DNA of 64,000 nucleotides from positions 1 through 64,000 of the forward strand of contig QPGO01000251.1 of NCBI GenBank assembly GCA_008632985.1, written 5' to 3'. Both the position numbers and the translations under genes were made by a program. How positions within the stretch are numbered: the stretch's first letter is position 1; the number at the start of each line of letters is the position of its first letter. The notes beneath the pieces are model-generated. The model did no database searches, had not been told where the DNA came from, and saw nothing but the letters and a program-made list of their open reading frames with translations. Below, in pieces: positions 16,201-60,300 of the stretch. This DNA is from Psammoneis japonica. Lineage: Eukaryota.

Positions 16201-16644
16201 ATGCCACAGGAACCACACCAATGGGAGATTGGGTGGCACAGCTGGGATGTTTGGGGCCTTGCACAACTGGGCCATTCATGACAGGATCCATTGCAGGCAA
16301 ACCAATTGATGAGTCACGGTGGAGCAAGAGAAGGAGGGAGTGGGTGCTTGAGGAAGCACTGCCTGGACAGTGACGGATTTGCTGGGGGCAGGGTGCAGAC
16401 ACCAACACTCCTTCAAAGGCTGTGGCAGTGGGAGGCAAGAAACGTGCAGTCGAGATTGCAGGGAAAAGATGAGGTGAGTGCAGTGGATCCATCACCAAAA
16501 AGAAGGGGAGATGTGGGATGAACCACAACAAAGCAAGCAAAGTGGTCCATGGAGAAAATGTGCCGCAGATGTCAAAACCATCTCCAAAACCATGGCAATG
16601 ATGCATCACGGCAGTTGTCCACACAAACAATGGGAAATCCAACA

Positions 16645-16955
16645 ACAACAGCTGTGCCCCCAGCAAGGGTGGGAGTCATGGGATGAACGCTGGCAGCACA
16701 CTCTCTGCTGGCTTGCAAGCCCAAAAAGTGGCATCTGGCGGCTGTTCCCCCAAAGCAAGGAGTGAGAGGGTGGGGCACACCGCAACACAATCATTGAAGG
16801 GCATGTCCACTGACATCACTGTGCCCCCTGTGGAAAAGGGGGGCATGGGATGAACCCTGGCAGCAATGTCAGAAAACCCTCAAAAAGCAAAGAAAACCCA
16901 GCTGTGCCCTTTGCAAACATGGGGGGCATGGGATGAACCCTGGCAGCACACTGGT
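16645..16955 (+). repeat. Three dispersed copies of a ~50-bp motif CTGTGCCC..GGGGCATGGGATGAACCCTGGCAGCA
   Basis: Copies start near 16649, 16817 and 16899. A partial GGGATGAACC occurs at ~16515. Confidence 0.75.
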
Positions 16956-18562: not shown

Positions 18563-21500
18563 ATGGGTGAGTGTGAGATAGTTGGTACTTGCGTTGGATG
18601 ATGTCGTCGTATTCCGATGGGAATGGCGAAAAACCTTACCAGCAGTGTCCTTGTTCTTTCAGGTCTTCTGAAAGTCGGTGTACCTCAAACATGGGACAAG
18701 TCGAAAAACAATCTGAACTATGTTAGAAAGGCAGGTGTTCGTCAGTTTGTCTCTACGTACAACAGGGTGAAAGATCTAAAGGGAGACGAGCTACTGTGGG
18801 GAGATGAGATCGAGTACGGGATATTTTGCCTCGACGAGCAGAATAAGAAGATTAGGCTCAGTCTTCGCGCGAAGGAGGTAAGCGTCATTTCTCTTGGCCG
18901 CATCTGTTCACAACGAACGTGTAGTGGCTGAGCTTTCATGTCCTGGACTACGATGATAAACAATGAACAGGTGATGGACGAGCTCAATCGCAAGGAAAGT
19001 CTGAACGCGGAGGCTGTCGAGGGTTGCAATTGGGTCCCAGAGTACGGATCATGGATGGTTGAAGCAACACCAAGTCGTCCATACACAGGGTACACAACGG
19101 ATCTTTTACGTGTGGAGAGAAACATGCGCTTGAGGCGAAAACGAATGCTGACAGTCCTGAGGGAAGATGAGATTGCGCCAACTGTTGCTGCTTTTCCTAT
19201 GTTAGGTGCAATGGGTAATGATGGAACGGTCCCAGCTAGTACGATTGGTGGGCCTCGGACAGAAAGCGAGTACATCGGCGATGCTGTCATTAACCCTCAT
19301 CCTCGTTTCGGAACTCTGACGGCTAACATCAGACAGCGTCGCGGAGAAAAAGTCAACATTCGAGTCCCCCTCTTTCGCGATACAAATACACCTGAATACG
19401 AAGAGTATGAATCGCCCGCTGGCGAAGGCGATGGTTGTTGTGGTGGCGATTCTCAACAGGTAAGGCAGTCGCCACAGAGCAAATATCTGTGACATTGGTG
19501 ACTTTTGCACACTGAGGTTCATTGACACCTTTTTCCTCGTGACAGCTCTGGCGCTATGGTAAAGGAGATGGATCTCGCGAAAAGTATGGAAATGACGAAG
19601 TCGTTGTTGGCTGTTCCAAGTCTTCCAAAGACGAGGAATTTCAGGACCAAGGCGGAGATCCAATAACTCTTCAAAAGTGGCTCGTGGATGTTCGATGCGA
19701 AGGTTGCCGCGGACTGTTCTACCGTAGCTCGCCGGGAGTTATCGTCCCAGATGCGGACTGGCCAAGAAACGGGGGTAAGAATGTTTGAACTTGTTGATTT
19801 GCCTGCATTTTAAATATACTGGCGTGACGTCGTACTGTTGACTCACTCAAGCGCCCACCTTGTTTCGAAGAAATCGTAATTGGACACGAGATATCTGACG
19901 TTCCAGGTATGTCACACTAAATGCAAGTTGGCTCATATTCTGGCATTTCATTCGTTTTATATAATCCGGAATTTTTGTTTATCGTAGGTTGGATTAGACT
20001 GCAGAACGGTTATTATCTGCCCATGTGTAGTGATGATGGGTCAGATGTAAAGTTCTTGCACAAAGTATCGACGAGGTCTGAATCTTCGAAGTCCGAGAAA
20101 ATGACTGTTGGTTCCGGCACACCTCTCTTCCGTGGTGGTGCGGTAGCTGCTGACTCACTCGCTGATGGCGCCGCTTTCGCTGACCTCGTGGAAGGAAAGC
20201 TCGCACTTGCGTCTCCTCCGGTCCGAAGTGCCAGCACGTCCACGGCGCAATCTACCGAGGAAGAGGCGGAAGAAAACGTCCGAGCTGCAATCCATATGGA
20301 TGCAATGGCATTTGGGATGGGCTGCTGCTGTCTTCAGATAACCTTCCAGGCAAAAGACATTGACGAAAGCCGTTTCATTTACGATCAGCTCGCGGTCCTT
20401 GCTCCCATAATGATGGCTTTGACAGCCTCAACACCAGTGCTTCGTGGTCGCCTTGCCGACACAGACTGTCGATGGGGCATCATTAGTGAGAGTGTAGACG
20501 ACAGAACTCTCGCAGAACGTGGTCGACCAGATCCATCCGCTCCACAAGAAGAGCTTGCGGGGAAAGGCCAACGGAGGCTGTACAAGAGCCGTTATGATTG
20601 CATTAGCACTTATATTTACCAAGGGGCGTTCTACCCCGACGACGAGAAGGCTGTGAACGGTGTAGACTCGACGCGGATGGCAAATCGTGTCTTGAACCTC
20701 TACAATGATATCCCAGTCCCGATTGATGAAGAGAGCTACCAACTTCTTCGAGATTCTGGTGTCGATCCGGCACTGTCCAGCATATTGCTCACTTATTCGT
20801 CCGAGACCCTCTTGTTATTTTTGAAGGCGCAGTAGAAGAAGTAGATGATGATACACAGACGGAACATTTCGAAAGTATCCAGAGTACGAATTGGTGAGTC
20901 CAATGTTACGTTGTATCTTTGGTAGTGGCATATCTTGAGCGCAGGTGTGTTCCTCACAAACAGTGTTCTTCCGCTTTGTAGGCAAACGGTGCGCTGGAAG
21001 CCACCTCCTCCTAGAAACGATCCGAATGACCCACACATTGGGTGGCGCACGGAATTTCGAAGCATGGAGATGCAGCTAACGGACTTTGAAAACGCCGCGT
21101 TCACTGTTTTTATCGTCCTACTCACCCGGGTCATTTTAACGTTCGATCTGAATCTGTACATTCCGTTGAGCCGTGTCGATGCAAACATGCAGCGAGCACA
21201 TAGCAGAAATGCCGCGGCGAAAGGAAAGTTCTTTTTCCGTCGGCACATGGCGCCCCTTGAAGAAGGAGACGACGGCTTTGGAAATGAGTACAAGTCTATG
21301 TTTACGATGGCCGCCAACAACGAGAGCAGCACACGGAGCCAGTCAGATAGCGACCCGATTGACGACGAAGTTTTCGAGAATGGGGTGAGTCGAAAAAGGC
21401 GAGTCGCTCCATGCGCTCCTGGTAGCGACGAGGAAAACTCATACGAAGAGATGACAATCGCAGAGATTATGACGGGAAAAGGTGACTATTTCCCAGGACT

Positions 21501-33857: not shown

Positions 33858-34981
33858 TTAATCCGTCCAATCGATGCGAATCGGTCTACCAAGCAAGTTT
33901 TTCCCGTTCAACGTTGCTCCTTTGTCGCAGGCTTCCGAATTCCAGAACTCAACAAAACCACTTATCGGGAAAGCACAGAGAATGGGTAAGACGAGGCCAC
34001 CATCCGAAAGAAAAATGCTAACATTGAAGAAACTTACCAACCCTTAAAGTCCCCTGTATCCTTGTGATGCAACCACCGAACTGCTTTCACTTCCGCGTCT
34101 ACGTTGGCAAAGAACTTCGTGATTGCATCGTCGTCAATGTCATACGAAAGGTTCCCAATAAAAAGCTTTACGCAGTTTTCTGGCTTGGCACTCATGGCTT
34201 TCACTCCACTACCACCGGCTTGCCCTCCACCACTTACAACTTTTTTCTCTGGCGGCCAAACATCTCCGGGACGAGAAGGAGCAAAGTTGATCTTGATCGG
34301 TCTTCCCATGAGCTGTGAACCCGCCTTGGCAACAGCTTCGGCAGCACTAGCGGTCGTATCCATTTCACAAAATGCTGAACCATAAAATTTTCCGGTTTCT
34401 TTGTCCGTGATCCATTTGATGTGCGTGACATTTCCGGGAAGAAATGCTCCCAAGCTCGATTCATCAACAGCAAACGGAAGGTTACCTAAGAAAAGACGTG
34501 TAATGCCTTGAGGGTTACCTTTGCAAGGCTTACGATCAGCTTCGCCACCATCTTCTTCATCTGATTTTTTAGGTCGAACTACCGTATCATCATTTTCGGC
34601 GTCCTCCTGTTTAGCTTCGTCGAAGTCGTGATTTTCTTTCGGCGTGTCGTCGTCCTGCTTCTTTCTCTTTTTCTTCTTGTGTTTTTCTTCTTTGTCTGCC
34701 TTTCTCTTCTTCTTCTTTTTTAATGTAACAATACCATCTTCGCTTAAAGATACGAGTCCCTCCTCTTCAAGAGCCTGAAAACTCTTCTTGAATTGCTTCT
34801 TTGCTTTTTTGTCTGTTTCATCATGTTGAAGTGACAGCAGCGCCACCTTTCGCAACTTCTTCACGGGTAGCGATCTCTTTTTTGTAGGAGTAGAACCATC
34901 CTCTTCGACTTGAGCTCCTTGTAACGAGGATATGATGGTGCTCTTCCAATCGACAGTACCATTTCCATTCTCTCCACCCAT
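33858..34981 (-). CDS. Nucleolin/NSR1-like protein with Lys-rich region and two RRMs; intron 33961-34037
   Basis: RLFLGNLPF...FYGSAFCEM and KLFIGNLSY...FKGCGFVEF after splicing. Start taken at MGGENG because the upstream ORF extension lies in TA-poor non-coding DNA. Confidence 0.88.
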
Positions 34982-36124
34982 TGCATCGCAGTGATTTTGG
35001 CAACAGATAAGATGTCGGCGTGACGCGTGACGATGGCTTCTTCTTTCGTTGTGATCCGATTTGTGGACATGGTCGTGTGGACCAAGGTGCGCGGATTGGT
35101 GATGCGATTCAATGTGCGAGAGTTGCACGATGGAAGGACGAACGCATCGCATCAGGTTGCTTGTTAGCTTGTTAGCTTGGCTCTGCCATGCCGTAGATGA
35201 GTTAGGACAGGGCCCGCTCCACAGCCACCACTCTAGAACAGATGCCTCCAAATCCAAAGCTAGCTTAGAACCGGTGCTTCCCAGTGTGTTTGTCTGTCCT
35301 GGTGTGAAGACTTCCTCCTCTCTCCAAGCTGGAAGTGGAAACACACAGAGCTGAAGATGGGACGAAATTTCAACCAAAAGAAGGCAGCGCCCTGACTGTG
35401 GGGTGGGAGCTGGGTGCTTCGAGCAAGAAATTGCTTGGAAATGTTGATGCTGAATGTTGTTTTTTCCTTCTTGGCACCTCAACTTGCTGGTGCAGAGTGC
35501 ACCAAAAAGGAGCCACTTGATTGTGGCTCTCAAATTGTGGCTCCAACAAGCTGCCAGAAAGTGAGAGCAGCAAACACCTCAAGATCGAAGAAAGACAGCC
35601 CTTCTTTTTGTTGACCCTGCCAGCAGCAGAGAGACTCTGACATTTTCTGGAAGCAAGACAACAACCCTTGGTGGCATCACAACAAGAACATGCTGCTGAT
35701 TCAACACTCTGGAAACACCCCAGATGAAGCTCTGAATGAGCAAACTCACTTGGCACACCCAAGCACAGAGCTTTGAAAATGTCCGCTGTGCCAAGGACAG
35801 AGTTGCAGCACACAATTGAGTTTGCATTTTTCTCTCATTGTGCTTCTTTGCCAACCAGAGTGGATTTGTTGCAAATCAAATTTTTGCAACAATGTGTGGG
35901 AGCAACTGCGCTTCACACATGGACACGATCAACGCAAGCAAGCAATGTCTCTGGCCGCAATGACACCCACACAATTTTTCTGGAGAATGGACAAAAGCAA
36001 TTCTGGCAAACTTGACTTCTTTCTTTGTGCCTTTGCCATTTTCCTTGTTGTTGTTTTCTTGTTTTTCTTGACAAGCTGTGACACAAGCCATGGGGCCTTG
36101 TGTGCTCTGGCTTCATTTGCCCAG

Positions 36125-36690
36125 CACTTGATGCTGTTGACAACACCCTGAATTGCAGCCAGTTGTTTGATGTTTGACTCACCTCAGCTCATTGATGTTT
36201 GCTCAATGCTTGATGCTGCAAATGATGTCCTGATGACTTGCTGTTGTTTGCTTGAAGCTTGACACTGATGACAACACCCGAACTCATCTCTGCTTGCCCA
36301 ATGCCTGGCACTGTTGACAACACCCCAACTCCTTGCTGTTTGCCCGGTGCTTGTGCAGCACTGGCACAGCACCTCAACATTGATGACACCCCCACTCATT
36401 GCTGTTTGCCTGATGCTCAATGCCGTTGACGATGCCCTGGCTCATGACCACCATTTGCCAGACACTCGATGCTGTTGACAATGCCCCAGCTTCTTGTTGC
36501 TGTTTGCCTCTGACACTTGGTGCTGTTGAAGATGCCCCAACTCCTTGCCATTTGCTTGGTGCTTCTTGACAGTGCTGACAATGCCCCAGCTCATTGCTGT
36601 TTGTGCCTGGTGCTTGGTGCCATTGACAATGCCTGACATTGATGACACTGGGGCCAGTTGCCATTTGCCTGATGCTTGGTGCCACTGGTG
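36125..36690 (+). repeat. Degenerate ~48-bp minisatellite, about 11 units
   Basis: Approximate consensus TGCTGTTGACAATGCCCCAGCTCATTGCTGTTTGCCTGATGCTTGA. Units differ largely by TG/CA/CG alternation. Confidence 0.8.
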
Positions 36691-38249
36691 CCAGACAAAA
36701 CATGCTCAGATCTTGCGCACCCAGGCTGTTCAATGATGCATCCAAACCTCACAAACCTTGCCACTCAATGACATTTCTGTTGCTCTTGGTTGCAAATGAC
36801 AGCACTGGAGAGGGTGCTTCATTCATTGGGCAAAATGACCCAAGTCTTTGACAAGAACTGCTGGTTCTTGTTGCTTTTTTCAAGGCTTTCAGCAGAGGCA
36901 GTGATGCAAAAAGCACAAGGGGGTGCCCTCAGGAGGACAAACTTTTCTCAGATCCATGCTGTTGGTTGACAAGGTCTTGTCCAGCAAAAATTTTCCTTTG
37001 GGTTGTTGCCCCCACACTGTGAGCCCACCAGAGAGCTTGCTCAAAACAACAAGCAACAGATGTGGCAGATCTGCACTGCCATCAATGAAAGACCCAGCCC
37101 AACCAAACCCACCCAAAAAACATGCCCATCATTCTCACCCATCAGCCTTGCCCCTGCCTGGTCATGCATGTTGTTGGCATCTGGTCTGAGCTTGCAACAA
37201 GACAAAATGACACTCTGAACATTTGCTTTGTGAGCATCACTCTCATTGTCATGAAACCACTGCAATTGACAGAGCAAGAGACTGTCAATGCAAATGATGT
37301 GAGAGCCTCTCCCTCATGTCATTTGCATGCTCAAAGGGCAGTTTCAGCATTCTGACAAAACAGCAAAGCAAACAGTCTCTGTCTCCAGGGGAATCATCAA
37401 AGTGGCACATCTGAATGTCAGCATCACCAGGAAGCCACACACTGAGGCATAAAATGCTGAACAAATCCTCAGACATGGCCAGAGCTCATGTTGAGATTTT
37501 CTTCTGTCTGCAAAGGCAGCAACATCAATTTCTTTTTGTTCAGCCACATTTGGAGCTGCCAAGTGGTCAAGGATCCTGCACCCAAATCTTCAAGAATGTG
37601 AGCCCACTCAGGAGGCCAGCTTGGAGTTTTGCAAAATCTTCATGGAGCAGCTTCATGCACCCCATCATGTTGAAGCAACATCTTCTCTCATTCATGACAC
37701 ACCTTCTTGTCTGCAAGGCCCCACCACTCTGACTTGAGGTGCTCTTTTCAGCATCAATCTTGACATGCACTTTTCCTCAACATCATGAAGGGGCAGCCAC
37801 ACTCAGCAGCACAGATGGCACAAGAAACCCAGGGACTTTGACAGAAAGAATGAGGTGGACAAAGACCACATGATGAACATTTGTGTCATGTTGGCAGCAA
37901 CAAACAGTGCAACACAAGAGGGCTCTCACCAGTGCTCACCAAGATGTTGCCACCCTTGAGAGGGAGATGTGACATGAGCTCCTTTTGTCCACCAATGACA
38001 CACCTTCCATGCCGCATCTGGTGGTGCCTGCACAGCCTGTTTGCAGCTGCAATGAAATCATCCCCTTGTGCTCCGTGCAGTTTTTGAATGTGTGCCTTGC
38101 AACACCCACAAAACTCACTGCTGCCATTGCAGCCACACCTCAAAATGGGAGCTTTTTCTCATGCTGATGATGCTGCTCTTGTGGCCAAAGCTTCTGCAAA
38201 AGCCAGCCATTGGAAGATGAAGCTTCTGATTGGCCCCTTCACAGTCTGG

Positions 38250-39050
38250 AAGACTGCTGCAGTTGTGCTTTTGGACCAGCTTCCAATGTGCTCATCAGAC
38301 AAAGTGGAAAACCCCATGACCTTGTGCTGGAGCTTTGCTGTGTGCTCTCTCTCTTTCCCATTTCTCTTGTTTGGTGCCCAAATGTCTGGTTTGGTTGCTG
38401 GCAAATCTGGGCACAAAAGTGCTTCTTGAGGTCTGGCAGAGACATGCTCTAGTTTCCTTTTGGCGTGGGGGGCTGTGCTTGGAGCACTTCATTTTGTGCT
38501 TGGCTGACAGCAAGTGGTGCAAAAGAAGATGGGAGCATCAAAAATGCCACAGCCAGTTGCCCCCTGCATGCTGCCAGGGCTGTCTTTTCTGACTGTGTTC
38601 CACATCTTGTCAGTTGGGCTCCTTGTGATCTTCCATGTCTTGCCAGCTTGGCTCCCTTGTCCTCTTTCTCTTCTTTTTTTTGCCTTTCTGCTCAACAAGC
38701 TCTGGAGTGCTGCTGTGGCTGTGCTTTTGGACCAGCTCCTGTTGCTCATCAGACAAAGCAGCAAATTCTGTGTTGTTCTTGTGTTGGAACCTTGTCCACC
38801 TTTTCCCATTTTTCTTGTCCATCTCAGTCCACTGTTCTGGCACAAACATGTCTGGACACAAGTGCTCTTCTTGAGGTCCATCAGAGACATTCTCCAACTT
38901 TCTTTCAGCAACCCATGCAAGGGCTCTGGTGCTTGAGGCACTTCCTTAAGGTGACTGGCCAACAGCAAGTGTGGTGCCCCAAAGATGGGAGTGTCAACCC
39001 ATGTGGGATGTTGGGTCTGGCATGCCAGGGTTCTCTTTTCCAGCAGCTGC
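38250..39050 (+). repeat. Diverged tandem duplication with ~455-bp period (38255-38600 vs 38708-39050)
   Basis: Colinear shared anchors: TGTGCTTTTGGACCAGCT, GCTCATCAGACAAAG, CTTCTTGAGGTC, ACAGCAAGTG, AAGATGGGAG, TGCCAGGG. Confidence 0.75.
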
Positions 39051-41019
39051 AGTCAATGTCTTGTCAGTGTGCCCATCCTCATGCATGGCAGTGTTTGTCT
39101 TCTTTTTCTTCTTTGTTGTGGGTTTCATTTTTGGCTCTTCCTCTTCCTCCTCCAGCACTTGTTTGCCTGTTTTTCCTTCTGAAAGTGAGTGGAGAGCACC
39201 AAGCATGCATCAGCTTGACAAGCTGCAAAACAGCACAAAGACAATCTCTTTCCTTGATGCACCACATCTGTTGGATTTGGCAACTGGCTTGTTGACCTCT
39301 TTGTCTTTATTGTCCTCATCTGTTAGTTCAATGCCAAGGACAAAAAGAGACAAAAGCATCAGTCTGGCACACCACAATGTGCAATGTTGTGGTGCACCAC
39401 ATTTGCTGGGTTCCTGTGAACAACAAGTGGGGCTGCCATTCATTGCCTTGTTTTTGGTGTTGGAGCTGCTGCTTGTTTGTCTGCAGAGCAGCACAATTTT
39501 GTTCTGAGCTTTTGCCTTGATTTGATTTGCTCAACAGCATTGAGCAATGTGGCCGTGCCATTTGCACTCACATTGTTTCATCATCATCAGCAAGCCCTGC
39601 ACATTTCTGCATGTTTCATTGGCATCAGTTGATTCATGCCATGCAACAACTCTTGCAAAATCCTTGTGTCCATTGAGACCAGATTTTGTGCTCTCCAATG
39701 AGCAATTTAAACACCACAAGCTCTGGCACCAAAACAAATTTCCTTTGCCCAGCCCACCAGCATGATGAGTGTTGATGTGCATTCAAACAATTTTTAAATT
39801 TTGCTGTGCAGCTCAACAAATTTGAGAAAGACTGAAAGAAGTTGGCAGAAGAGCTCACATTGTTTGCTGCCCAACTGCATGAGATGACACACAGAGGTGT
39901 GCCAGGAAAAACCTGGATTTGACCTTGTGGCACCCAACACATGCCCAGTGCTGGACTCAAGGTTCTTGCAGTCCACTTGTGCCAGCCCAACACATGCTGG
40001 GTCAGCACATGACACAGAGAGGGCACAACATGTCATCATTCCTTGCACATGAGTGTGCACACTCATTGTGCACATGAAAATGGCAACACCAGTGCACACA
40101 TGGTGGTTGAGATCTTGCACTTTTTTCTCTTGCCCCAGACTCCAAAAAAGAGCATCTGTCACCACTGCTGTGCGGAGCATGGAGCATTGTTGCCAAAGAG
40201 ACAAAGGGTGCCACACAAGGTGCAGCAAGGGGTTTGCATTGACTTGCACATTTGTGCAGCAGTGCTGTTCATCTCCTGCTGCAGAATTGCATTGCTCATC
40301 ACCAGCTCTGTTGCTGAAATGAGGAGTTTGCTTCTTGTCTCTGTTGTTTCTCTCATGACATTGCACCTTGCTGCCCCATTCTTGCGGGGCCTTGCTTGCC
40401 AAAGTTCTGGGGGAAGTTTCAGCTGAAGCACAGGTGTCATGTTGGACAAGCAAGGCACAGCCACCCATGATGCAGGGTTGTGCCTGCATCTTTGGTGATG
40501 ACCTGGCAGTTTGCAACAATGGGCTTGGCTGCAAGAAGTGCTCACCATTGAACACTGCTGAGAACCAAGATGCAGCAGCAGGTGTGACAAAACTGCCAGC
40601 ACTCCACCCTTTCCCCACATAACCTGCTGCCAAGTTGCAGTCACTGAAGGTCCTCCTGATGACCCACATCTCCAAAGAAGGAGACCAGAGTGGAGGTCAA
40701 ACCCAATGGGCTGAAAAAAAGCATCACAGCTGGCACAACAGCCAATGTGCACAAGACTCTGGCAGACTGGTGCCGTGCTTGTGACAAATTTTTGGGAACA
40801 CTTGTAGAACAAGACAGTGGCTGGCAAGGCTTTTTTGATGTTGTGTTTTTCAGCAGCAAGCATTTTGATGGGAAGTGCTGAAGAAGTGTGGCAAAAGTCA
40901 CTTGAAGCCATTGGCTGAAAAGCACAAACATGACACAAAATGAAAAGGAGTGTGGAAGAGAAACTGACCACACATCTTGATCTGTGTGCAAAGCTTCATT
41001 GTGGGAAAGGAAATGGCCT

Positions 41020-41470
41020 TGGAGCATCTTGGCTGTTGATGCCAGAGAAATGTTTGGAGTGTGTGAGGGAATTGTCAATGGTTTCAAGGCGTCTCCTGGT
41101 TGGGTTGTGAGCACCCTTGAGAGTCATGGCAAGATTGGTGCTGATTTTCATGGAAAACAGAGGAAGAGGCAGCTGAGGCAATGAGATGATGACAAGTGAA
41201 GCTTTGCCAGCTCATTGAGGGAAAGGGACATGCAGCCAGAAAGTGCAAATGCAGTGCAAATCAGACAAGACTGTTCCTGTCAGAAGCTCCCAAGCTGCTT
41301 GCATGTGGACAAAGCTGCAAAGAAAGACTTTGTCATTGTCAAGAAAATGAAGGACAAGACCCAAATCGTGATGCTCCTGGTTTGTACATCAGCTGCTGGC
41401 AGGAAAGTTCCTTTGGCACTCTGCAATTGGGAAAGCTGAGAAGCTGGTTTGCCTCTGTGTTTGAGCTCTG
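41020..41470 (+). mobile_element. pogo/Tigger-like (Tc1/mariner superfamily) transposase relic: end of CENP-B HTH and start of DDE_1 domain
   Basis: GFKASPGW...HG....FHG, then across frameshifts CSANQTRLF-CQKLPSCLHV...KMKDKTQI.MLLVCTSAAGRKVPLAL..GKAEKLVC. This follows the pogo pattern FKAS.GW / YN.D.TGLFY..LP.R.YV / K.R.T...C.NA.G.K.P...GK..KP.CF. Confidence 0.8.
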
Positions 41471-41559
41471 ACCGGCAAACCAGGCATGCTCGAAACTTGC
41501 CCCCACTCAAACCGCATTCTCAGAAGCAAAAGAGAAACATGTGGACATGTGACAGTGCT

Positions 41560-42006
41560 GGAGTTGCAGACCTCGACAGATTTGATAAAGAGACTGTGGA
41601 CTGTTTGTTCGAGTTGAGCTTGACCACGACTTTTGTGCTCAATTCACGAAATGATAAGAAGCTCGCCCGAATGGCACGCGCCTTCGTTGAGGGAGATGAG
41701 AATTTCTTGTTCAAAAATTCAGCGTCAAAAACCATCTTTGGGGCACTGGTGCGGACCTTCATCAATCCCGCTGGTTTGGCTTTAATCCAGCATGTAATGT
41801 TGTGTCACTATTCCGATACGTTGTCAGCGCAAGAAAAGGAAAAAAGTGCGCTCTGGGGTCAATGAGGAGATGGAGCATGTTCTGGGACTCATCAGCTGGC
41901 CACGATCCTACCTTAAACGAACTCGCAACCATAATGGAGGATACTCCGGGATGGCCGTGTCAGTGGTAGCATCAAGACAATGGTGATTGAGGATGATTTA
42001 GATTAA
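41560..42006 (+). pseudogene. Possible 3' remnant of an unknown gene abutting the transposon block
   Basis: Protein-like frame DLDRFDKETVDCLFEL...; after a frameshift it can run to ...MVIEDDLD*. No start or family recognised. Confidence 0.25.
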
Positions 42007-42159
42007 AAAGGCAGCATCCGATTTTGGCCTACTATAAAATGTGAAGAAGATAGGATGGAATTGAATATCGAATGACGCTCGTATGCATAATCGCATTCAA
42101 TCTAGAATCTTCTACCAGCATGTTATATCGCAGGACGGGAAATGACAAGACGAGATACA

Positions 42160-43178
42160 CTACATTCCCAGAGCCGGCGATCCTTGAAACCACTTGCGAA
42201 TCGTATATATCTGAAACCCAGTAACAGCCATGAAGAGCACGGTCTCCAACAACGACGTCAACACCATGCGAGAATGTGAGTGCTCATTTGTGGCCGCATG
42301 TACCGCTAGTCGATGTCGCTCGTTCAGTTGCCTAGACTGGATATCCGCCATCAGCTTACGAAGTCTTCCAAGCTGGTTTCGCGTCGTTTCAAAGTCTTCA
42401 TCCTGCACGCCTTCTTCTTGCGATGCCGTATCTTCCTCTAGCATCTTTTCTTCATCCATAACAACCCTCTGTTCATAAGATAACACATGACCCGTATCTC
42501 TGTCAATCCCCCCCAGGCTTTTCTCCGTCCGAAGTTCCATCTCTACTCCAATCTGAGAAAACGAAAGCCAGGAACTGATTACGACCACGAATCATCTGGT
42601 GCTGTACGCAGAGCTAAGAGTGGCAAACTTACCTGATACCACGTCCCGCGCACGCAGAGGCGATACCAACCGGAAGACTCTGCCCGAAGGGTCTTCTGAA
42701 ATGGTTCACCCTCGCTGAGAACATTCTTCTTGGGTCCCTTCTGGTGCTTAACAGGCCTTTCGTGTGGTCGACGCTCAGTCATTCTACGTCTGGCTTCCGC
42801 TTTTTCATCCTCGTATTCATCATCAACAAAATCTTCGAAATCGTCGTCGTCATCATCATCCCATTCTTCGTTTAAGCTCTCGTAATCAATAACCTCGGTG
42901 AAAGAAATGAACTTTCCATAGTGGTCGTCGTTCCGAAATTTTTCGATAGCTCGATCGAGCTCATACCCGGTGTTGGCGTCAAGGGGAGCCACGGGGCCCT
43001 CCATGATTGCCGTCGCCTTGAGTTCCGATCCAGACAGCACGAAAACACTCATTGTCAGAAACTCGCCTTTCTCAACTTTTTCGTACAAGCATTCTGTCGA
43101 CCTCTGATTGACTACCAGCTGGAGAGGCAACCCAGAGGCCAGGGGCATCAACAGGCACAGTACAGCGAGCGGCGTCAT
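42160..43178 (-). CDS. p24/emp24 (GOLD domain) cargo receptor; intron 42553-42632
   Basis: Signal peptide, ECLYE, GWYRLC, coiled coil, TNE...R, TM helix and short tail QIYTIRKWF. Confidence 0.9.
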
Positions 43179-43374
43179 GGTGTCGGGTTGCGGGTAGCGG
43201 CGAAATGACTTGCCAAAGCGACCCCGAAGGGTCAGGCACCCAAAAATGCGCGTGAAGCGCGCGAAGAACGCGGGAACAGTACGCCAGAGTGGTGTTTTCG
43301 ACATTTCAGCCAGAGCTGGCTCAGATAGATGAACGGAGAGACACACTGTGGTGCATCCACTTTCGGATTTAGAC

Positions 43375-44880
43375 ATTGTGTGGTGTGTTGAACATCAAAG
43401 AGAATCCCATTTTCCACATCCATTTGCTGCACTTAAGTCCTGTCCACTGGCACAAGAACCAAAGCAACCAGCAAGAGCCAGCACATTTCCACACCCCCTT
43501 GATGAGTGGCTTTCTTGGTTTCCTTGCTCTGTCCTTCTCCTGTCTGTCAGTTTGGCACCTCTCTCAACACCAAACACCTGAAGCTCCATTGTCATCTTCT
43601 GATGCTTCCATTGAGTGCAAGAATGTTGAGAAAAAACAGCCTTCTTGTTGGCAAATGTGGTTGAGAAAATTGGCCTCAGCTTTGGGTGACAAAAGTGCAA
43701 ATCCACGCAAATTTTTCAGAAAGGTGTTCTCCTTCGGTGCTGTTGGTGGTCATCCTCAGACAAAAGGACAGTGACTCACCATGCTTGCCACACTTCTTGA
43801 TTGCTTCAAACAGCGCCTGCAAAGTGTTTGCAGACCAGCAGCTCTGCCACACAACCCAGCTGTCAGCAATGTGCTCACTCTTGCTGCAGTTTTTGATGGC
43901 ACAAGGTGAGTGAACAGAAACTGCAGAGTTTTGAGTCTCTCTCTTGCAAAATCACCACCCACTTCACTTGCTCTTTTTTCTCAACACTGCTGTCAAATTG
44001 AAGCTTTGCTGCATGAAGCGATCTTGCCAAATCGCTGTTCCTCCAAACTCACTTTCTCTTCTTCTGCACTCCACCCCGCACTTCATTCATTCTTTTTGCA
44101 AGATCAGCTTTTGTCCCAGCTCAAACTCAACACCTTTTGACCTTGGTCGGAGCTTGACCTTTGTTGCTCTCAGTGTGCTCCCAGAGAGTCTGCAGCTTTC
44201 AACAAAGTGTGCCAGCAGCAGAGCAAAACCTTTGTTGCTGCTGGCAAACTCATGTCATGAAAGAGGGCTGCAAGCAAGGTGTGTGTCTTGTGAGCATGCT
44301 TCACTGCGGCTTTTCTGGCTTGATTTGGTGCTGCAACAGCCACAGCAAAAAAGCCAGACAAACCAAAATTGCAGACAGCAGCAATTGTGTGCCATTGCTT
44401 TGACATCATGTTGCTCTGTTGTGTGCAAGACTTTCAAGGGTGGGTCAGTGGGAAGAGAGGTCATTTTTTAACAGCAAACATTTTTTGCCATTGCCCAACA
44501 TTTTGCCCTGTGTGCTGTGGTTTTGAGATGACTCAGAGGATGCCCAGAGAGCACCCAAAACACTTGTGAGCATTTCTCTGCTGCATGTCAGAGCTGTCAG
44601 ACATGCACAAAAGGTGTGCATGCTGTCAATCTTAAAACGTCAATTGCTGCTGGCTTCTGGTGACCAAGAGGTGTGCACCTCAAAAGCAGCCGCGTGTTGC
44701 CAGAGCCGCACTTCTCATGGTGCGTCATTGTTCCAGCACTTTCTGGGAAATGCTGGCAATCAATTGGTGTTCGTTGACCGGTCATGTACATGTTGTCTCC
44801 AGTCACTGAGCCAAGACCCCGCATTGGTCTTCATTCAAAACGCATTCTGTGTTTTTTCGTGTGGAAGGACACATGAAACC
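43375..44880. mobile_element. Block C: decayed repeat DNA, TpA- and CpG-depleted
   Basis: Only a handful of TpA in 1.5 kb; same composition as blocks A and B; family not recognised. Confidence 0.65.
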
Positions 44881-45132
44881 CGGATGTTACGCACAACATG
44901 CGTGATGGACTGACAAGGCCTACCGGTACCATCTTTCTGCATGTTTGCACCCAGGGCCTGGCTCGGATTACAATCGTCGCGATTGAGGCTACCCAAGTCC
45001 CTCTCTCGGTTAAGGTCAGAATATATTTTGTATTTTAGAAGAAGTAGTTACAACTGCAACGAATAGTGTCTGTCTCGATCGTCCTTGATCTCGCAGCGTC
45101 TGCAAACCGAATGAGTTGCACCCCACCCAATT

Positions 45133-45936
45133 TCACCAGGAATCGTCATCACTACTGTCTTCCTCCATGATTCCATTCATACCTAGGCGAAATGTTGCAT
45201 GGCTATGAAGACCGAGCTTGTTTGTCATTCGAGACGAAAGCATGGAGGTTCCATGTGCCCGAGGGAACCACTGACGCGCATACCTCGGTCTGGACCAATG
45301 GCTTTTGCAAAATTCGTTGCAAGTGTGGTTGCTGAAAAAGGAATCAATTCCTTTTTCTCCCAAGTCTGTAGGACCGTATTGCCGCGTTCGAGAACAGATG
45401 GCTGGATCGGACAGCTCAAAGCGGCTCTTTGACCTTGCGTACCGGTTGTAGCGGTATCGGCCTTGCAGGTCACAGACAAGAAGACTCCCACCCGAGGCGT
45501 GGTAGGTGAAATGACTGAATGCCTCCATTTCAAGTACATTTGGTTCCGCATTCTCATCAGCGATCCATCCACTGTTGGAAGTATACTTTGTATAATACCG
45601 AATCAAGGGTTCCACCAAATAGGAAATCCCAGAGTTGGACTGCTGAATGTGGCCGCGAGACACCAAAATTTCCAGTCCAGCCGGGCAGAATTCATTCCAC
45701 TGTTCAGCAAATTGGATAGTCTTGTCAGCGATACGAAAGTCTGACGCAAAGTACTCTTGTTCCATTTGACGAAAGTGAGGTTTGAAGCGTTTGCAAGCGG
45801 CGGCTTGTTGATTGCGATTGCCTCCGATGTACGTGCCCTCCAAACACACGCGAAAAGTCCCTTCTCCAAGTTTATTGTTTGATATCCTTACATCGTAAGA
45901 GGTCAAGTTGGTCCGAGCAGCAGACGAATTAGACAT
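45133..45936 (-). CDS. Stand-alone alpha-kinase (eEF2K/MHCK family)
   Basis: LGEGTFR, YLVEP, KYTSNSGW, AFSHFTY, LVCDLQG, LSDPAI, GPTDLGEKGI..FF.NHTCNEFC. Confidence 0.93.
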   Translation of the reverse strand: MSNSSAARTNLTSYDVRISNNKLGEGTFRVCLEGTYIGGNRNQQAAACKRFKPHFRQMEQEYFASDFRIADKTIQFAEQWNEFCPAGLEILVSRGHIQQSNSGISYLVEPLIRYYTKYTSNSGWIADENAEPNVLEMEAFSHFTYHASGGSLLVCDLQGRYRYNRYARSKSRFELSDPAICSRTRQYGPTDLGEKGIDSFFSNHTCNEFCKSHWSRPRYARQWFPRAHGTSMLSSRMTNKLGLHSHATFRLGMNGIMEEDSSDDDSW

Positions 45937-46267
45937 GGCGGTGGATTACATTACCGGTAAGGTTACGGGTAGTGGGCGGGGCATTGTCAAAATGCGTGAT
46001 GTGTGATGTTGTATGGAGATACCTCTAGCTAGCTTGAAGGTACTGTATCATACCGGTAGGTGAGAGCCCCCCGCCCGCCGCGCCCGCCCCCGCCCCCCCG
46101 CCGCGCCCCGAGTATGAATACACAGACGCTTCAAGTTGCCAACGTGGAACCACGTCACCAGTTCGTCGCACCTCTATCCCACTCACTTACTTTTTGGCGG
46201 GCTTTTCCCATTCTTGGTAGGTCCACAAAAAAAGGAAGTTGTGCGGAAAGCAAATCCAAACAATCCG

Positions 46268-47213
46268 ATGCGGTGTGTGTCGTTGTTATTAGCTCTACAT
46301 GCCAGTCATGCGTTCGTCTACCCGAGTATGAAAACTCCCTCCTCTCTCCGAGCTAGAAGCAGAAACGCCGAGTTGAAGATTGCGAATTTCGACCAAGAAG
46401 GCATCTTGACTCTGGGGGAGGAACTGGATGCCCTGTCTCGACGTAAATTGCTTGGAAGTGTAGCTGCTGCATCGTTCTCCTTCTTGGTACCTCAACTTGC
46501 TAATGCAGAGAGCATCAAGTTGGAGCCACTGGATGTCAGCAAGTATGGCTTTCAAATTATGGTGCCAAATAGCTGGGAGAAAAGTGAGCAGACGCTTCAA
46601 GATCGAAGAAAGATAACCCTTTTCATTGACCCCGCCAGTGACAGAAAGACTCTCATGTTTCTGGCTTTCACTCCTATTAGAGATGACTTTACTCAGCTTT
46701 CATCTTTTGGAAATGTTGAACAAGTGGTATGTACAGAATGGATGGCATTGCGATGCGAATTACATGTTGTGACCCCTCATGCCGATCTCTTCTGCGCTTT
46801 TGCGTTTCGAAACCCGTACCGGTATGGCCGGTAGGCACAAACTACCATTCTTCCTAAAGGTGAAATTGCCGGGGAAGAGACTGCCAGCCGTATGATAAAA
46901 TCGGAGAGTAAGAAAAACGCCTACTTCTTTGACTACGTTGCGGACGTTCCAGGTCAACCCGAGGTGCGTATTCAAACCGCTGACACGATAATAAATTGAG
47001 GATTCTTTGATAATCGCCCCCTTTACAACTAACGTGCCCTTGTATCAACAATCTTAGACGCACTACCGTACGATCTTTGCTATCGCCCCAAATGATGGAG
47101 CCGCGGGTTCCACGCTGGTAACTATTACGGTGCAGACACCAGAAGATGGATACAGCGAATTGAAGGGAACTTTTGATGACATCATTTCCTCTTACGGCAC
47201 AAGTGGCAAGTAA
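46268..47213 (+). CDS. PsbP-domain thylakoid lumen protein; introns 46727-46834 and 46964-47057
   Basis: Signal peptide ending SHA-F, twin-Arg SRRKLL, ANA cleavage site, YGFQIMVPNSW, DFTQLSSFG; spliced frame is open to TAA at 47213. Confidence 0.85.
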
Positions 47214-55193: not shown

Positions 55194-56075
55194 TTTTAAT
55201 TGTTTGCCCGACTTGGTGCAGTTAAGACCTTTTTTTGCATAATGGCGTGACTCAAAGAATGCAACCATATGGAACGTTCAGCATTTTAGTTCAGAATGAA
55301 GCTAGCACAGCATGCATGGAGGCACACTCTTCCTCTCTTTGAGAGAACAGCTAGCTAGAGAGATCGATGATGCCACTCTAGACAGGGGCGTTGGCAACGA
55401 GACAAATGAAATCAGAGCGTGACGGACAGACAACAACACGCGTTCTTCTCCTCGGCTCCGGTGGGAAGCGAGGGAATCGAAAGCTTGCTGGCGGCGTGCA
55501 ACTTTCTACAGGCCACGAGAAAATGACGCAAATGAGATGGAATCTCCTCGGGAGGCGACCTTGCAACCAGAACGTACAAACTCTGGGCCTGCAGGTGGCG
55601 AGTCACAAAAATGTGACACCCACAAAGCACAGCACGCAACTCCGCAGATCTCTTTTCTCATTTTCTTCTTGATCTCGTTTCATGGTTCTGAGATGGCACA
55701 GGAGCGTGAAGGTGGCTGTGGATTCAATCACACCACGCAATCCAATGCAATTGAGGCTGCACTTTTTGTCTGGCCTGGACACCAGCCAAAATGGATGTCC
55801 CCATGAATCCACCTGACTTTGCTTGTTTCCAGTGCATTTGAGCAAACCACATTGTTGTTTGCATTGCCCCAGTGAAAAGTTCAAAGCACCAAGAAGTGTG
55901 TGAGCTGCTTTGGGCTGTGCATTGTGTCAGCTGCCATGCACATTGTGGATCTTGGTCATTGAGGAGCTGTGCCGCATTGACACCACACCATTCTTTGCAG
56001 ATTCAAAATGAAGCAGAAGCCATCCAGTGCTGTCTGTCATTTCCAACAGGTGTCTTCCAATGAAATTGCAACATC

Positions 56076-56583
56076 CAGCTACTAATGAGAGTTAATGTAT
56101 CACGGCGACGTGTTACAGCCTTTAAGGCGGGCCGTCGGCTTATTTTTTTCGCACGTCTTTTCCGGGTTTTTACGCGTTTTTGACGGGTCGCGACAGAAAA
56201 TAACACGACAAAAGCACGAGCGACAATGATGATGTTCGCGACGAGCGGTGAGTTGCAAAGTATCACCTCACGAGGGATACTCATTGGTTTTATTATCGTC
56301 ATACAGTGCAGATTGATTTATGTGCTTTCGTCCCTCGTGCCACTGGGCCAATTTTGAGAGATAGCGTAATTGCCGTCATCGTCGTGCTTCGATCGCGGTG
56401 CCTGATGTTCTCGTTTTCGTGGGCGATCGAACAATTCTTGTATTTAAAATTAATAATTATAAATAAACGTATTCAAACACATTGCTAATTTTAGGATAAA
56501 CGCGGAAAAAATGGGTCGGCGGTCCCCCTTAAATGTCACAAAGGGCGTGACAAAAATAACCTTTTGTCTGCATGCATGCTGCA
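56076..56583 (+). repeat. ~508-bp direct repeat, copy 1 (TpA intact)
   Basis: Aligns almost gap-free to 56820-57328; 30 TpA counted. Confidence 0.95.
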
Positions 56584-56657: not shown

Positions 56658-56819
56658 TTGTCTGCAGCAACGTTGATCACTGTCGAACGCGCAAAACTCT
56701 GTGCAGTTCTGTGTGTTCCTTCGTGCGCACCCACACTGTTCCGCCAAAAACGTGCAGTGTCAGCACACGTCAGCAAAGAGCCGCATGGACGTGTGATGCA
56801 TGGGGAGGAGTGCAATGCA

Positions 56820-57328
56820 CAGCCACCAATGAGAGTCAATGCACCACGACGACGTGTTGCAGCCTTTAAGGCGGGCCATCGGCTTGTTTTTTTCGCACGT
56901 CTTTTCCGGGTTTTTGCGCGTTTTTGACGGGTCGCGACAGAAAATGACACGACAAAAGCACGAGCGACAATGATGATGTTCGCGACGAGTGGTGAGTTGC
57001 AAAGTGTCACCTCACGAGGGACACTCATTGGTTTTGTCATCGTCACACAGCTCAGATTGATTTGTGTGCTTTCGTCCCTCGCGCCACTGGGCCAATTTTG
57101 AGAGACAGCGCAGTTGCCCTCATCGTCTTGCTTCGATCGCGGGTGCATGATGTTCTCGTTTTCGTGGGCGATCGAACAACTCTTGCACTTGAAGTTGATG
57201 ATTGCAAACAAACGCATTCAAACACATTGCCAATTTTAGGATGAACACGGAAAAAATGGGTCGGCGGCCCCCCTCAAATGTCACAAAGGGCGTGACAAAA
57301 ATGACCTTTTGTCTGCGCGCATGCTGCA
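56820..57328 (+). repeat. ~509-bp direct repeat, copy 2 (TpA converted to CpA/TpG)
   Basis: Same sequence as copy 1 but only 2 TpA remain, both in TTTA context. Confidence 0.95.
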
Positions 57329-60300
57329 AAATGTTCTGCAATCTCAGAGCTGGATTTGTGCATCACATTCTCTTGATTGCCCACATGAGCAGCCTTCTTG
57401 TGACTTGAGCATTGACGCCAAATGTTGCTGTGAGGCTGTTCTGCCATGGAGGCTGAGAGTTTGAGAAACATTTTGCAGGCATGTTGTGGTTTCTTCCATT
57501 GATTCAAGTGCAATTTTTGACACTTCATTCAGCCCTGAAATTTGAGCCAACACCTTTGTGGCAATTGCAAAACCTCACCCTGTCAACCATGAAATTGGCC
57601 ATGTTTTGGAAGTCCTGCAGCATCTGTGCATTCCTGGTGTGCAGCTGGCCATGATGGCCAGTGGGGATGTCCCTCACTGTGGCCACAATTCATCAAAATG
57701 GAAGATTGCTGTGGTTGTTTTGGGGACAAGAATGAAGGCCTGTGCTTGGCATTGTGTGCTTTGCTGACAGCATGCCCAAGCCAGAGAAAATGACTCGTGC
57801 ATCATGCCTGCCTCCACCACATCACCATCAGCTCAAAAAAGTGGCTCTGTTTGTTTTGTTGCTGTGAGCTTGTTCATCATGGGCTCTAAGCAGCATTTCT
57901 TCAGAGCTCATGCTTGACTTTCAGAATGTCCATGGTGCAAGAAGATTGAGGGTTTTGCATCAACAATCTGACACCCTGGCTGGTTGTGGTGGAGCACTGT
58001 GCCATCCATCCAATTGGCTGTTTTCACATTCATCTGAGGAAAAAAGAAAACAAAACTTTGCAAAATGGTGCAAAAAGTGAGCTCAGCAGTGTCCCTCCTC
58101 TCCTTGGGCATGGCTGCCTTGGCTCAGGTCACCAACAAACAAGCAAGCTCTCCTCCAAAACCCAGGACAAAAGACCCCTTTGCAACAGCCGCCAAGCTCA
58201 CGGCTTTTCTCACGCATCAGGCACAGCATTGTTTCCTTTGTTTTTCAGCAGCTTGCAGGCTCAAACTGGGCAACAACCTTGCAGCTTTTTCTCACTGGTT
58301 CTTTGGTCTGTTGCTGATGCCGTTTGCATTGCTCATGCCTTGTCAACAATGGCTGTTTTGTTGTGTTTGCTCTTGAAGTGAGCGACTGCAAAATGCAGCA
58401 GCACACCTCACCTCAACAACCAGTGGTGGAGATGAGAGAAAATTTTGACCCATTTCAAGTGGACAATGGGCTCATGAAAACAGGGGGCACTTGAACACAC
58501 CATGACAGATGCTTTGTGGCATTGTCAAAAGGAGCTGCTTGCAATTTGTTGTGTTGCTGCGCCGTTGCTGCTGGTTCTCAAGTGTGAACACTCATTGGAA
58601 AACAAAGCCATGTCATTTTTCCCTTGAAGTTGGGTGCTGCTTAAAAGCATGATTTGTTGTCTCATCTTTTGACGTGCAGGGGGGGGCGGCAGACATTGGG
58701 GGGTGGCTTGTGGCTGCTCTCCAAAAAAACTGAGAAGCACCCAGGTTTGCCAGAACTTGTTTTGAGCCAAAGTGCGCAGCTGGTGCAGTGAGAAAGAAGT
58801 GAGCAACTCCAAGATCAGCTCTTTCTGCCGGGCTGGCAAAATCAGCATGCTGGCAGAAACCAGCCAGTGCAGGCTCAGAGCAAACCTGGGCGGGACACTG
58901 TCTGTCTGGCCGGGAGACATTTGACGGATGTGAGCTGCTGCTTTGTGCCCAATGTCAATGGTTTGAGTCCAACACAAAATGTTGATTGCCAAACACACGT
59001 GGCCTCCTGACAATGGAAATTGCAACTTTTTTCGAAAACAGATTTGCTGCAGCCAACCACAACACAGATCGCTTTCTCAAAAATGATGTGATGACTCGTC
59101 TGCAATTTTGGAACGCCGTTGCGGCCATTGTGATGCCAACAGCAACCGATGCCAAAAATAGAAGCTCTGATGTCTCTAACAATGCATCTACCATGTCAAC
59201 TGACTCTCTAGTTGTAGAGAACTCGAAACAGTGCTTTTCTCTCTTTTGCCGTGCTTGACTGTGTAACAGCCAGGGATTGCTGGCACCAACCCGTTTTCGT
59301 GCGTGTGTGTGCGTGCGTGCGTGAACAACCCTTGCGAGGTCTGAAGGTCTGAGGTCGGGACATGATATTCGTGTAAAAATAAAGCATGATTTTTTGATTT
59401 CTGTATTTATGCGGCGATTCTGGAAAAATCTTGAAACAACACGACAATGGCCGAAATGCCGTTCATTCTCGAAAATTGAACATCGAGGCTGGCAAATTTC
59501 ATCATAAGGCCTAAGTTCATTGTTCATATCAAAATCGATAAACTTACGACGAAATTTTCCAGCCCCCACGTTCAGTTTTCGAGAATGAACGGCATTTCGG
59601 CCATTGTCGGCGTTGTTTGCACGATGATGCGCAGAACTCGCGGACAAGCCGTTTGTGATCTTTTCAATAAATCTTGTTAATTTTGCAAAACAAATTCTAA
59701 AATACTCAAAAAATGGCGAAAACAAGAGGGATAGTGGGAAAATCAAATTTCCGCCTGTCCTACGTGGGGAGGAGGAATAATGGAATCTGAATATTCTACT
59801 CAACCGGTTGAATGGAATATTTGTTGTACCAGACGATTTCGTAGCTTCTACGTGGGTCTTGAGTTAGAGGATGAAGCGTTGGAAGGAAGGCTGAAACTAC
59901 TGGGTGCCAGGTGCCATCCGATCCTTTTTGTTTTGTTCTCGAGGCGGGAAGAGAATGATATTATCTGCAATGTTGGGTATGAATTAGAAGTACATTTTAT
60001 ATTATGTTGCTGCAAGCTGTGTGGTAGGTACCGGTATGGATTGAAGCTATGGACGACATCAGCGACAGAAAGTGCAACAAGAAAATGCATGGTTTTGTAC
60101 ACCACACCAACTCGACAACGACGACTGGACAGCAACTCCTTGTATTATCTAAAAGATGCAATGGAAAGGCCGCGCCGTGCTATCTATCCTAGCAATAGGT
60201 CAATAAAGTACGAGCAAAATCCTTGTTTCACGGGTCCTTCTCAGTACTTTTCCTCCCGATGCGGTTATTCGCCGCGAGAACCTCGCGACCGCAGTTCGCG

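Follow-up and report, generated by a model that had tools for sequence, protein, structure and literature searches.

The window analysed here, a stretch of 64,000 nucleotides from the diatom Psammoneis japonica (contig QPGO01000251.1 of assembly GCA_008632985.1, positions 1 to 64,000 of the forward strand), carries at about 40925-41461, on the plus strand, the relic of a pogo/Tc5-type transposase gene, broken by at least four changes of reading frame and by three in-path stops. The relic sits at the edge of a 6.2-kb block that is nearly devoid of TA and CG, and we consider it highly probable that it is a dead transposase fragment within a domain in which nearly all TpA steps have become TpG or CpA and most CpG steps have gone the same way. 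A 500-base sliding count over the window delimits five such blocks, at about 7500-18200, 35270-41470, 43300-44800, 55500-56000 and 56800-59150, in which TA stands at 0.0-0.1 of expectation, CG mostly at 0.0-0.3 and TG and CA at 1.7-2.3; their G+C content, about 0.48, equals that of the rest of the window. In the relic's own block CG is at about 0.07 of expectation, and ApT shows a milder loss (313 against 414.5 expected, compared with 2649 against 2887.8 in the rest of the window). Outside the blocks, 42,245 bases hold 1690 TA against 2887.8 expected and 2491 CG against 2399.2. The boundaries of the blocks are sharp to about 100 bases and adjoin normal genes: the ordinary parts of the window encode host proteins that include an HSF-type protein, glutamate-cysteine ligase, a nucleotide-sugar transporter, a pseudouridine synthase, an RRM protein and an alpha-kinase, and the nearest named relatives of the transporter all come from diatoms, at 62-73% identity.

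The pieces of the relic succeed one another in different frames (Table 1). At its centre, the codons TGC AGT GCA AAT CAG ACA AGA CTG TTC (41250-41276, plus strand) give CSANQTRLF in frame 3, and TGT CAG AAG CTC CCA AGC TGC TTG CAT GTG (41278-41307, plus strand) give CQKLPSCLHV in frame 1, in exact agreement with the listing made in an earlier, sequence-only reading of this DNA, which had called the element a pogo transposase relic. That identity is upheld through the relatives of the relic. An exhaustive phmmer search of 1.84 billion representative proteins, with the frame-1 reading of 41029-41436 as the query (136 residues, TGA as X), returned 44 proteins at E<=1e-3, of which 6 pass E<=1e-10; the best has E 1.4e-13 (67.6 bits, 41% identity over query residues 18-131). 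Twenty-two of the 44, the longer ones, were scanned with Pfam at E<=0.001, a level at which a few matches fall under Pfam's curated cut-off; DDE_1 was found in 19, HTH_Tnp_Tc5 in 11, at least one of both in 21 and neither in one. The nearest relatives of the relic share the architecture of the pogo/Tigger/Tc5 transposases, DDE_1 (PF03184) with HTH_Tnp_Tc5 (PF03221), and their consensus YNADQTGLFYQKLPNRxYV matches the one given in the sequence-only reading, Y-N-x-D-x-T-G-L-F-Y-x-x-L-P-x-R-x-Y-V. When the 44 relatives were run against the window with tblastn, their matches were confined to 40886-41589, on the plus strand and in frames 2 and 1. Moreover, a profile of 626 columns, made from 12 long relatives of which none is tyrosine-poor (as defined below) and searched against the 127,996 residues of the six-frame window, matched frame +1 at 40696-41424 (columns 10-261, 66.4 bits, E 6e-22); frames +2 and +3 add colinear pieces, individually weak, at columns 93-140 and 175-228 respectively, and across the six frames of the window no score rose above zero bits outside the relic locus.

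The relic aligns with pogo/Tc5 transposases from the HTH_Tnp_Tc5 region through the first catalytic motif into DDE_1, of which it covers the first part. Unlike the intact enzymes it is a fragment, in which Asn has replaced the first catalytic Asp and the remainder of the catalytic domain is lacking; judged from the alignment, the catalytic residue at the first Asp column is lost. Similarity to the transposases stops at column 269 of the 626, before the LDNCxAH motif of the relatives. It is highly probable, in a judgement made jointly with that on the loss of TA, that what remains is the N-terminal 40 percent or so of a pogo/Tc5-type transposase gene and that the second and third catalytic residues are missing. 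A second copy of the element was not found within the 64-kb window, and its 3' half is missing. Past 41461, a profile search of 41462-42300 for transposase similarity gave matches with negative bit scores only (42077-42118 and 42193-42292). Some tblastn alignments do run on to 41544-41589; the aligner left this piece unplaced, the negative-bit profile matches further on are regarded as chance, and a continuation of the relic beyond 41461 was rejected. The end of the relic coincides with that of the TA- and CG-free block, the first regular CG lying at 41473 and the next TA at 41586. CpG thus reappears (41473, 41491, 41513, 41574) about 100 bases before TA does (41586, 41655), so that the two depletions do not stop at exactly the same point.

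It is the tyrosine codons of the relic that give the change its direction. Alone among the amino acids, tyrosine is encoded only by codons with TA. Seven of the 44 relatives have under 2.1% Tyr overall (P0121, P0126, P0128, P0157, P0158, P0160 and P0162, called tyrosine-poor here) and were set aside; the other 37 define conservation, with at least 60% agreement in 72 columns along the path of the relic. None of the five conserved Tyr is kept. They read His, His, Cys, Cys and His in order along the relic, and each of these is one transition away from TAY (TAT or TAC), inside its TA. The other conserved columns are kept in 46 of 68 cases (Fisher p=0.0054), and of the 12 columns with residues whose codons are obliged to contain TG or CA (Cys, Trp, Met, His and Gln) 9 are kept (p=0.009), so that TG and CA are the sinks of the process and not its sources. 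Since TGY or CAY now stands where the conserved codon is TAY, and the obligate TG/CA residues are mostly retained, the change runs from TA to TG/CA and not in reverse. This is the direction that the sequence-only reading had assigned from three steps, TAC to TGC at 41250, TAT to TGT at 41278 and TAT to CAT at 41302, all of which fall in columns where the ordinary relatives have predominantly Tyr (Table 1); Tyr has also become His at two sites upstream of these, 40973 and 40997. Over its 177 codons the relic has no Tyr, 11 Cys and 7 His, while the same span of the relatives contains 4.45% Tyr, 2.59% Cys and 2.17% His. The earlier reading had counted intact relatives with Cys or His at these positions as evidence that would contradict it; the relatives of this kind that were found are mostly tyrosine-poor (P0121, P0126, P0128, P0157, P0158 and P0160), the exception being His in 5 of 36 ordinary relatives at 41278.

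The direction opposite to this one is familiar from fungal repeat-induced point mutation (RIP); here it would mean that TG and CA are ancestral and that ordinary DNA and the relatives gained TA. Differences between pairs of repeat copies would suit it equally well, as they have no polarity. The conserved Tyr columns already contradict it, however, both among the protein relatives (Table 1) and among 34 metagenomic relatives whose DNA was taken from metagenome contigs, where 133 of 156 cells at the five columns are TAT or TAC; moreover, the relic is a broken copy, and 10 TA in 6.2 kb is implausible as an ancestral state. We hold a gain of TA in the relatives to be extremely improbable. Cys or His occupies only 2 of the 156 metagenomic cells (L004 at column 116 and L006 at column 214), although the 34 loci are biased for column 205, which the search pattern had fixed to Y, C or F (at 41250).

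Table 1. Positions in the window of the relic, its informative columns, its block and the repeat copies used for comparison
Feature	Position	Strand	Reading or remark
TA-/CG-free block with the relic	35300..41470		TA 10 vs 414.5 expected, CG 24 vs 356.5, TG 747 vs 392.2, CA 682 vs 376.9
Relic piece, frame 2	40925..41074	+	Upstream of the Tc5-type DNA-binding region; profile columns ~93-140
Relic piece, frame 1	41020..41172	+	HTH_Tnp_Tc5-like region; FKASPGW...LHG-like motif; profile columns ~125-172
Relic piece, frame 3	41157..41276	+	Linker and first catalytic motif; C-S-A-N-Q-T-R-L-F vs Y-N-A-D-Q-T-G-L-F/Y in relatives
Extra base C	41277..41277	+	Shifts the reading frame from 3 to 1
Relic piece, frame 1	41278..41421	+	C-QKLPSCLHVDK...KKMKDKTQIVMLLVCTSAAGRKVPLAL; start of the Pfam DDE_1 region in relatives
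Last supported relic piece, frame 2	41423..41461	+	AIGKAEKLVC vs VGKxKKPxC in relatives; profile columns 261-269
Tyr column 108	40973	+	CAT (His); Tyr in 27/27 ordinary relatives
Tyr column 116	40997	+	CAT (His); Tyr in 22/28 ordinary relatives
Tyr column 205	41250..41252	+	TGC (Cys); Tyr in 31/36; one-step ancestor TAC (TA to TG)
First catalytic Asp column	41259..41261	+	AAT (Asn); Asp in 35/36 relatives
Tyr column 214	41278..41280	+	TGT (Cys); Tyr in 29/36 (His 5, Phe 2)
Tyr column 222	41302..41304	+	CAT (His); Tyr in 36/37; one-step ancestor TAT (TA to CA)
Decayed block-edge copy	35285..35650	+	72% identity to 46309-46664 (normal DNA)
Direct repeat, TA-keeping copy	56076..56583		90.8% identity to 56820..57328
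Direct repeat, TA-erased copy	56820..57328	+	Internal comparator for the TA to TG/CA process

The seven tyrosine-poor relatives contain 0-2% Tyr and raised Cys and His, and one tyrosine-poor database relative is an open frame of 604 residues with a DDE_1 match. At column 205 the seven read C, C, C, C, H, C and Y, and at column 222 they read C, H, H, H, H, H and Y; a mixture of Cys and His at the same columns is, on the alignment, what would be expected of independent events on one TAY codon. On this evidence, pogo copies erased of TA occur in other public data sets as well. Three of the metagenomic loci (L003, L020 and L026) have, in their match regions, TA at 0.22-0.26 and CG at 0.32-0.36 of expectation, and may be lightly mutated copies or may reflect the composition of their hosts. 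Their lowish TA is what one would look for if the element had always been without TA or CG, its composition having come from a donor genome or from selection. These loci nevertheless keep TAY at the Tyr columns tested, and the relic, with its frame changes and stops, is not under selection. Moreover, unrelated sequences in the five blocks are of the same composition, among them the copy of a stretch that has normal TA elsewhere in the window. An intrinsic composition of the element is hardly credible on these grounds.

The same process can be followed between repeat copies. The two members of a tandem direct repeat (Table 1) differ at 46 aligned positions, and the 30 TA of 56076-56583 appear in the other copy as CA in 15 cases, as TG in 13 and as TA in 2, whereas 36 of 41 CpG, 30 of 33 TG and 28 of 29 CA are kept. 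TA erasure in this repeat is without strand bias and affects one of the two copies. Because TA is gone and CpG is mostly kept in what is a young repeat copy, TA erasure is separable from CpG decay and faster. At the other edge of the relic's block, the decayed copy at 35285-35650 has TA at none of the 11 TA sites of its counterpart, 46309-46664, and TG or CA at eight of them; of the 14 CG of the counterpart, seven read TG or CA and two are kept. The counterpart lies inside an open frame of 238 codons (46118-46834) with a sub-threshold match to PsbP (E 0.0076; 16.7 bits, with the cut-off at 23.5), and these frame and domain scores make it probable that a host gene fragment, too, is present in the relic's block as a decayed copy. 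The sequence-only reading had named transposons as the targets of the change. This holds for the relic, which is derived from a transposon, but is too narrow for the block as a whole; the unit affected seems to be a domain of DNA that is repeated or silenced. The loss of TA to TG and CA affects both strands within sharply bounded domains, and the loss of CpG is separate from it.

Differences between repeat copies give no direction by themselves, and a comparison of copy with copy cannot separate a change from TA to TG/CA from its RIP-like reverse; a coding relic with conserved Tyr can. The relic is the only such witness to polarity in the window, and through it the islands without TA and CG in a diatom genome are linked to a process of A:T to G:C change that has a direction. 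At 7500-18200 and 39794-40911 many stop-to-stop frames of 110-290 codons overlap on both strands without a family match; long false open frames follow from the absence of TAA and TAG in TA-free blocks. The largest block, 7500-18200, has 36 stop-to-stop frames of 110 codons or more; 31 of these were compared with Pfam and gave no match at E<=0.01 (the frames left out are 8422-8760, 10913-11260, 14730-15062, 15969-16313 and 18113-18601). The Pfam scans of the TA-free blocks of the window revealed no other recognisable transposon protein, so that the relic stands alone. Islands without TAA and TAG thus carry false open reading frames while standard domain models, here those of Pfam, miss their transposon content, and the annotation of genes and repeats in diatoms is distorted as a consequence.

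The block is also present in sequence assembled independently of the contig. From a public sequencing run (X1) we re-assembled a contig of 9266 letters, at a word depth of 65.5, that covers 34000-43184 and departs from the window at 26 letters and in 10 gaps. Of the single-letter differences between the window and this contig 22 were listed; seven of them set CpG against TpG or CpA and none sets TA against TG or CA, which implies that the block's loss of TA predates the divergence of the two sequences and that CpG decay is still polymorphic. Adjacent doublets that read TG in the window and CA in the contig occur at 36052-36053 and 41190-41191. They look as they should if two alleles or strains had each resolved a single palindromic step of their ancestor (TA or CG) in its own way; because CG in the ancestor gives the same doublet, they were rejected as proof that it had TA. 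Contigs from a second run (X2) match 34154-35046, 41986-43077 and 45019-45998 only, with none on the relic's block. One of them (depth 317) skips the 80 bases at 42553-42632, which end in CT..AC, that is GT..AG on the minus strand, and which look like a spliced intron of the gene with an open reading frame at 42579-43376 on that strand; this run is recorded as DNA but, with contigs on genic parts only, it may contain cDNA. Modified bases can produce systematic miscalls, and the block might in principle be an artefact of base calling at such bases in the assembly. The re-assembly reproduces it in 9.2 kb at depth 65, however, the relic has the indels and transversions typical of age, and tyrosine-poor relatives are present in other public data sets; an artefact is most improbable.

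With the five Tyr codons included, 27 conserved columns of the relic have changed, by six TA steps, three CpG steps, two A to G changes outside TA, five G to A changes after A, and 11 transversions or multi-step changes. One of the TA steps crosses a codon boundary (T|AAG to T|GAG at 41438). The products of CpG decay are CGT to TGT at 40985 (Arg to Cys, within the piece at 40925-41074), CGA to CAA at 41362 (Arg to Gln) and CCG to CTG at 41444 (Pro to Leu). The two changes outside TA both replace Asn by Ser, by AAT to AGT at 41253, which is an ApT step, and by AAC to AGC at 41293, which is not. The sequence-only reading had taken the first of these for an ApT edit, and this is plausible, as the column is Asn in 36 of 36 relatives and ApT is a minor target in the window's tandem pair; its assignment of CGC to TGC at 41296 to CpG decay is likewise plausible but not secure, the column being Arg in only 19 of 37. 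The G to A changes, at 41012, 41155, 41259, 41268 and 41426, all lie at first codon positions and all follow A (ApG to ApA), and neither TA erasure nor CpG decay explains them.

Several points weigh against the reading of the relic as a transposase fragment decayed from TA to TG/CA. With Pfam itself, neither DDE_1 nor HTH_Tnp_Tc5 was found in the three frames of 40651-41520 at E<=1, nor any transposase family in the six frames of 35001-41600 at E<=0.1, and a word-indexed protein search with the relic yielded 81 candidates of which none reached E<=10. The similarity to pogo transposases that the sequence-only reading had anticipated is thus significant by phmmer and the profile, and absent when the relic is compared with the two Pfam families directly. 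The miss can be ascribed to the relic spanning only the first part of DDE_1 and being heavily substituted; still, without a direct match the family assignment is transitive, by way of the relatives. The test of direction has only five Tyr columns, and one of these, column 214, is His in 5 of 36 ordinary relatives and was placed by adjacency (directly before QKLP) and not by hmmalign. Any transition-biased decay also turns Tyr into Cys or His, and, as the spectrum of the 27 changed columns attests, a good deal of ordinary decay accompanies the two dinucleotide processes in this old relic. Finally, run X1 may be the assembly's own sample and would then be a weak independent support, and the enzymatic mechanism considered next is one that we infer.

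Homology, Tyr replacements, the composition of the blocks and the TA to TG/CA pattern between repeat copies are observed directly. As to the chemistry, T to C is impossible by deamination, so that the simplest lesion would be a change of adenine into hypoxanthine, on one strand or the other of the palindromic TpA. Hypoxanthine at TpA would be the primary lesion and would be read as G at replication; the deaminating activity would be confined to silenced or repeat DNA, and loss of CpG would be a separate and slower process, the deamination of 5-methylcytosine. Under the genetic code a change of TA to TG/CA never converts a sense codon to a stop, and genes would therefore be inactivated by missense, with TAA and TAG removed. 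Adenine to hypoxanthine at TpA is also what a recent preprint proposes for Bigelowiella natans, in which integrated DNA of giant viruses and virophages undergoes TpA hypermutation (Mettrop et al., bioRxiv 10.64898/2026.01.13.699255); as candidate enzymes it puts forward nucleic-acid deaminases, ADAT/TadA-like proteins and others with the cytidine-deaminase fold.

Alternatively, the blocks could be a passive by-product of chromatin state, in which silenced, late-replicating or poorly repaired DNA gains context-specific A:T to G:C changes without a targeted enzyme. The change is domain-wide and takes in the probable host gene fragment copied at the edge of the block, ApT is mildly depleted as well, and many other substitutions are mixed in, all of which a passive bias would account for. 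It would be harder to reconcile with a drop in TA of some 40-fold while G+C stays the same, with borders against normal genes that are sharp to within about 100 bases, and with a repeat copy that has lost 28 of 30 TA and kept 36 of 41 CpG while otherwise differing little; in B. natans, according to the preprint, the rate jumps by more than 1000-fold and only in some lines (bioRxiv 10.64898/2026.01.13.699255). We consider a passive bias unlikely. The reading of directed erasure can be extended, tentatively and with slightly less than even confidence, to a dedicated adenine-editing defence in diatoms. Such a defence would be targeted by chromatin or repeats and would be a mirror of RIP, acting on whole silenced domains, faster than CpG decay and by missense without stops; its origin would be shared with that of the process in B. 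natans, making it an old trait of the SAR supergroup (Stramenopiles, Alveolata and Rhizaria). If the process is an enzyme-driven defence, eukaryotes would have a second kind of genome defence by mutation, based on adenine and not on cytosine chemistry, in an ecologically dominant group.

A full-text literature search returned no description of TpA erasure in diatoms, and the single co-occurrence of pogo with diatom genome papers in that search was the name of an author. The signature in the P. japonica blocks matches the TpA hypermutation of B. natans, so far the sole report of the process, in an unrelated alga. In the mutation-accumulation lines of B. natans described in the preprint, two integrated viral regions gained new mutations, of which 210 of 211 in one region and 20 of 20 in the other are changes from A to G or from T to C, every one at TpA, and TpA-poor coding sequences are enriched in DDE-superfamily endonuclease and reverse-transcriptase domains (bioRxiv 10.64898/2026.01.13.699255). 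As reported there, A:T becomes G:C only at TpA, giving TpG or CpA according to the strand, and the loss of TpA is coupled to a gain of CpA and TpG, as it is here; in B. natans the DNA affected is exclusively foreign in origin. The two cases also differ. B. natans is a chlorarachniophyte (Rhizaria); the host here is a diatom (Stramenopiles), and the demonstrated target is the relic of a DNA transposon. TA is at about 0.02 of expectation in the diatom block, against the 0.45 given in that text for the viral region of B. natans. The diatom block has also lost CpG, and the preprint text has no mention of CpG, diatoms, stramenopiles or tyrosine. Moreover, the mutation of B. natans was seen happening, on the preprint's account, whereas the diatom process is reconstructed from its end state.

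The loss of CpG has a precedent closer at hand, since diatom transposons are CpG-methylated (PMC9998398). Like the decay of methylated transposons, the block has CG reduced to a small fraction of expectation, Arg and Pro codons that have become products of CpG decay, and CpG against TpG or CpA in 7 of the 22 differences from run X1; CpG decay alone, however, cannot remove TA or replace Tyr, and the young repeat copy is TA-less with its CpG present. In RIP, C changes to T mainly at CpA, by which TpA is enriched and stop codons are created. The process in P. japonica resembles that of Neurospora and other fungi in that dense, local and dinucleotide-specific transitions destroy repeated or mobile DNA and leave the neighbouring genes intact. 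Unlike RIP, it has mutated only one copy of the tandem pair, and it runs against RIP in both chemistry and direction, with TpA erased and not enriched, G+C not lowered (about 0.48) and no sense codon turned into a stop.

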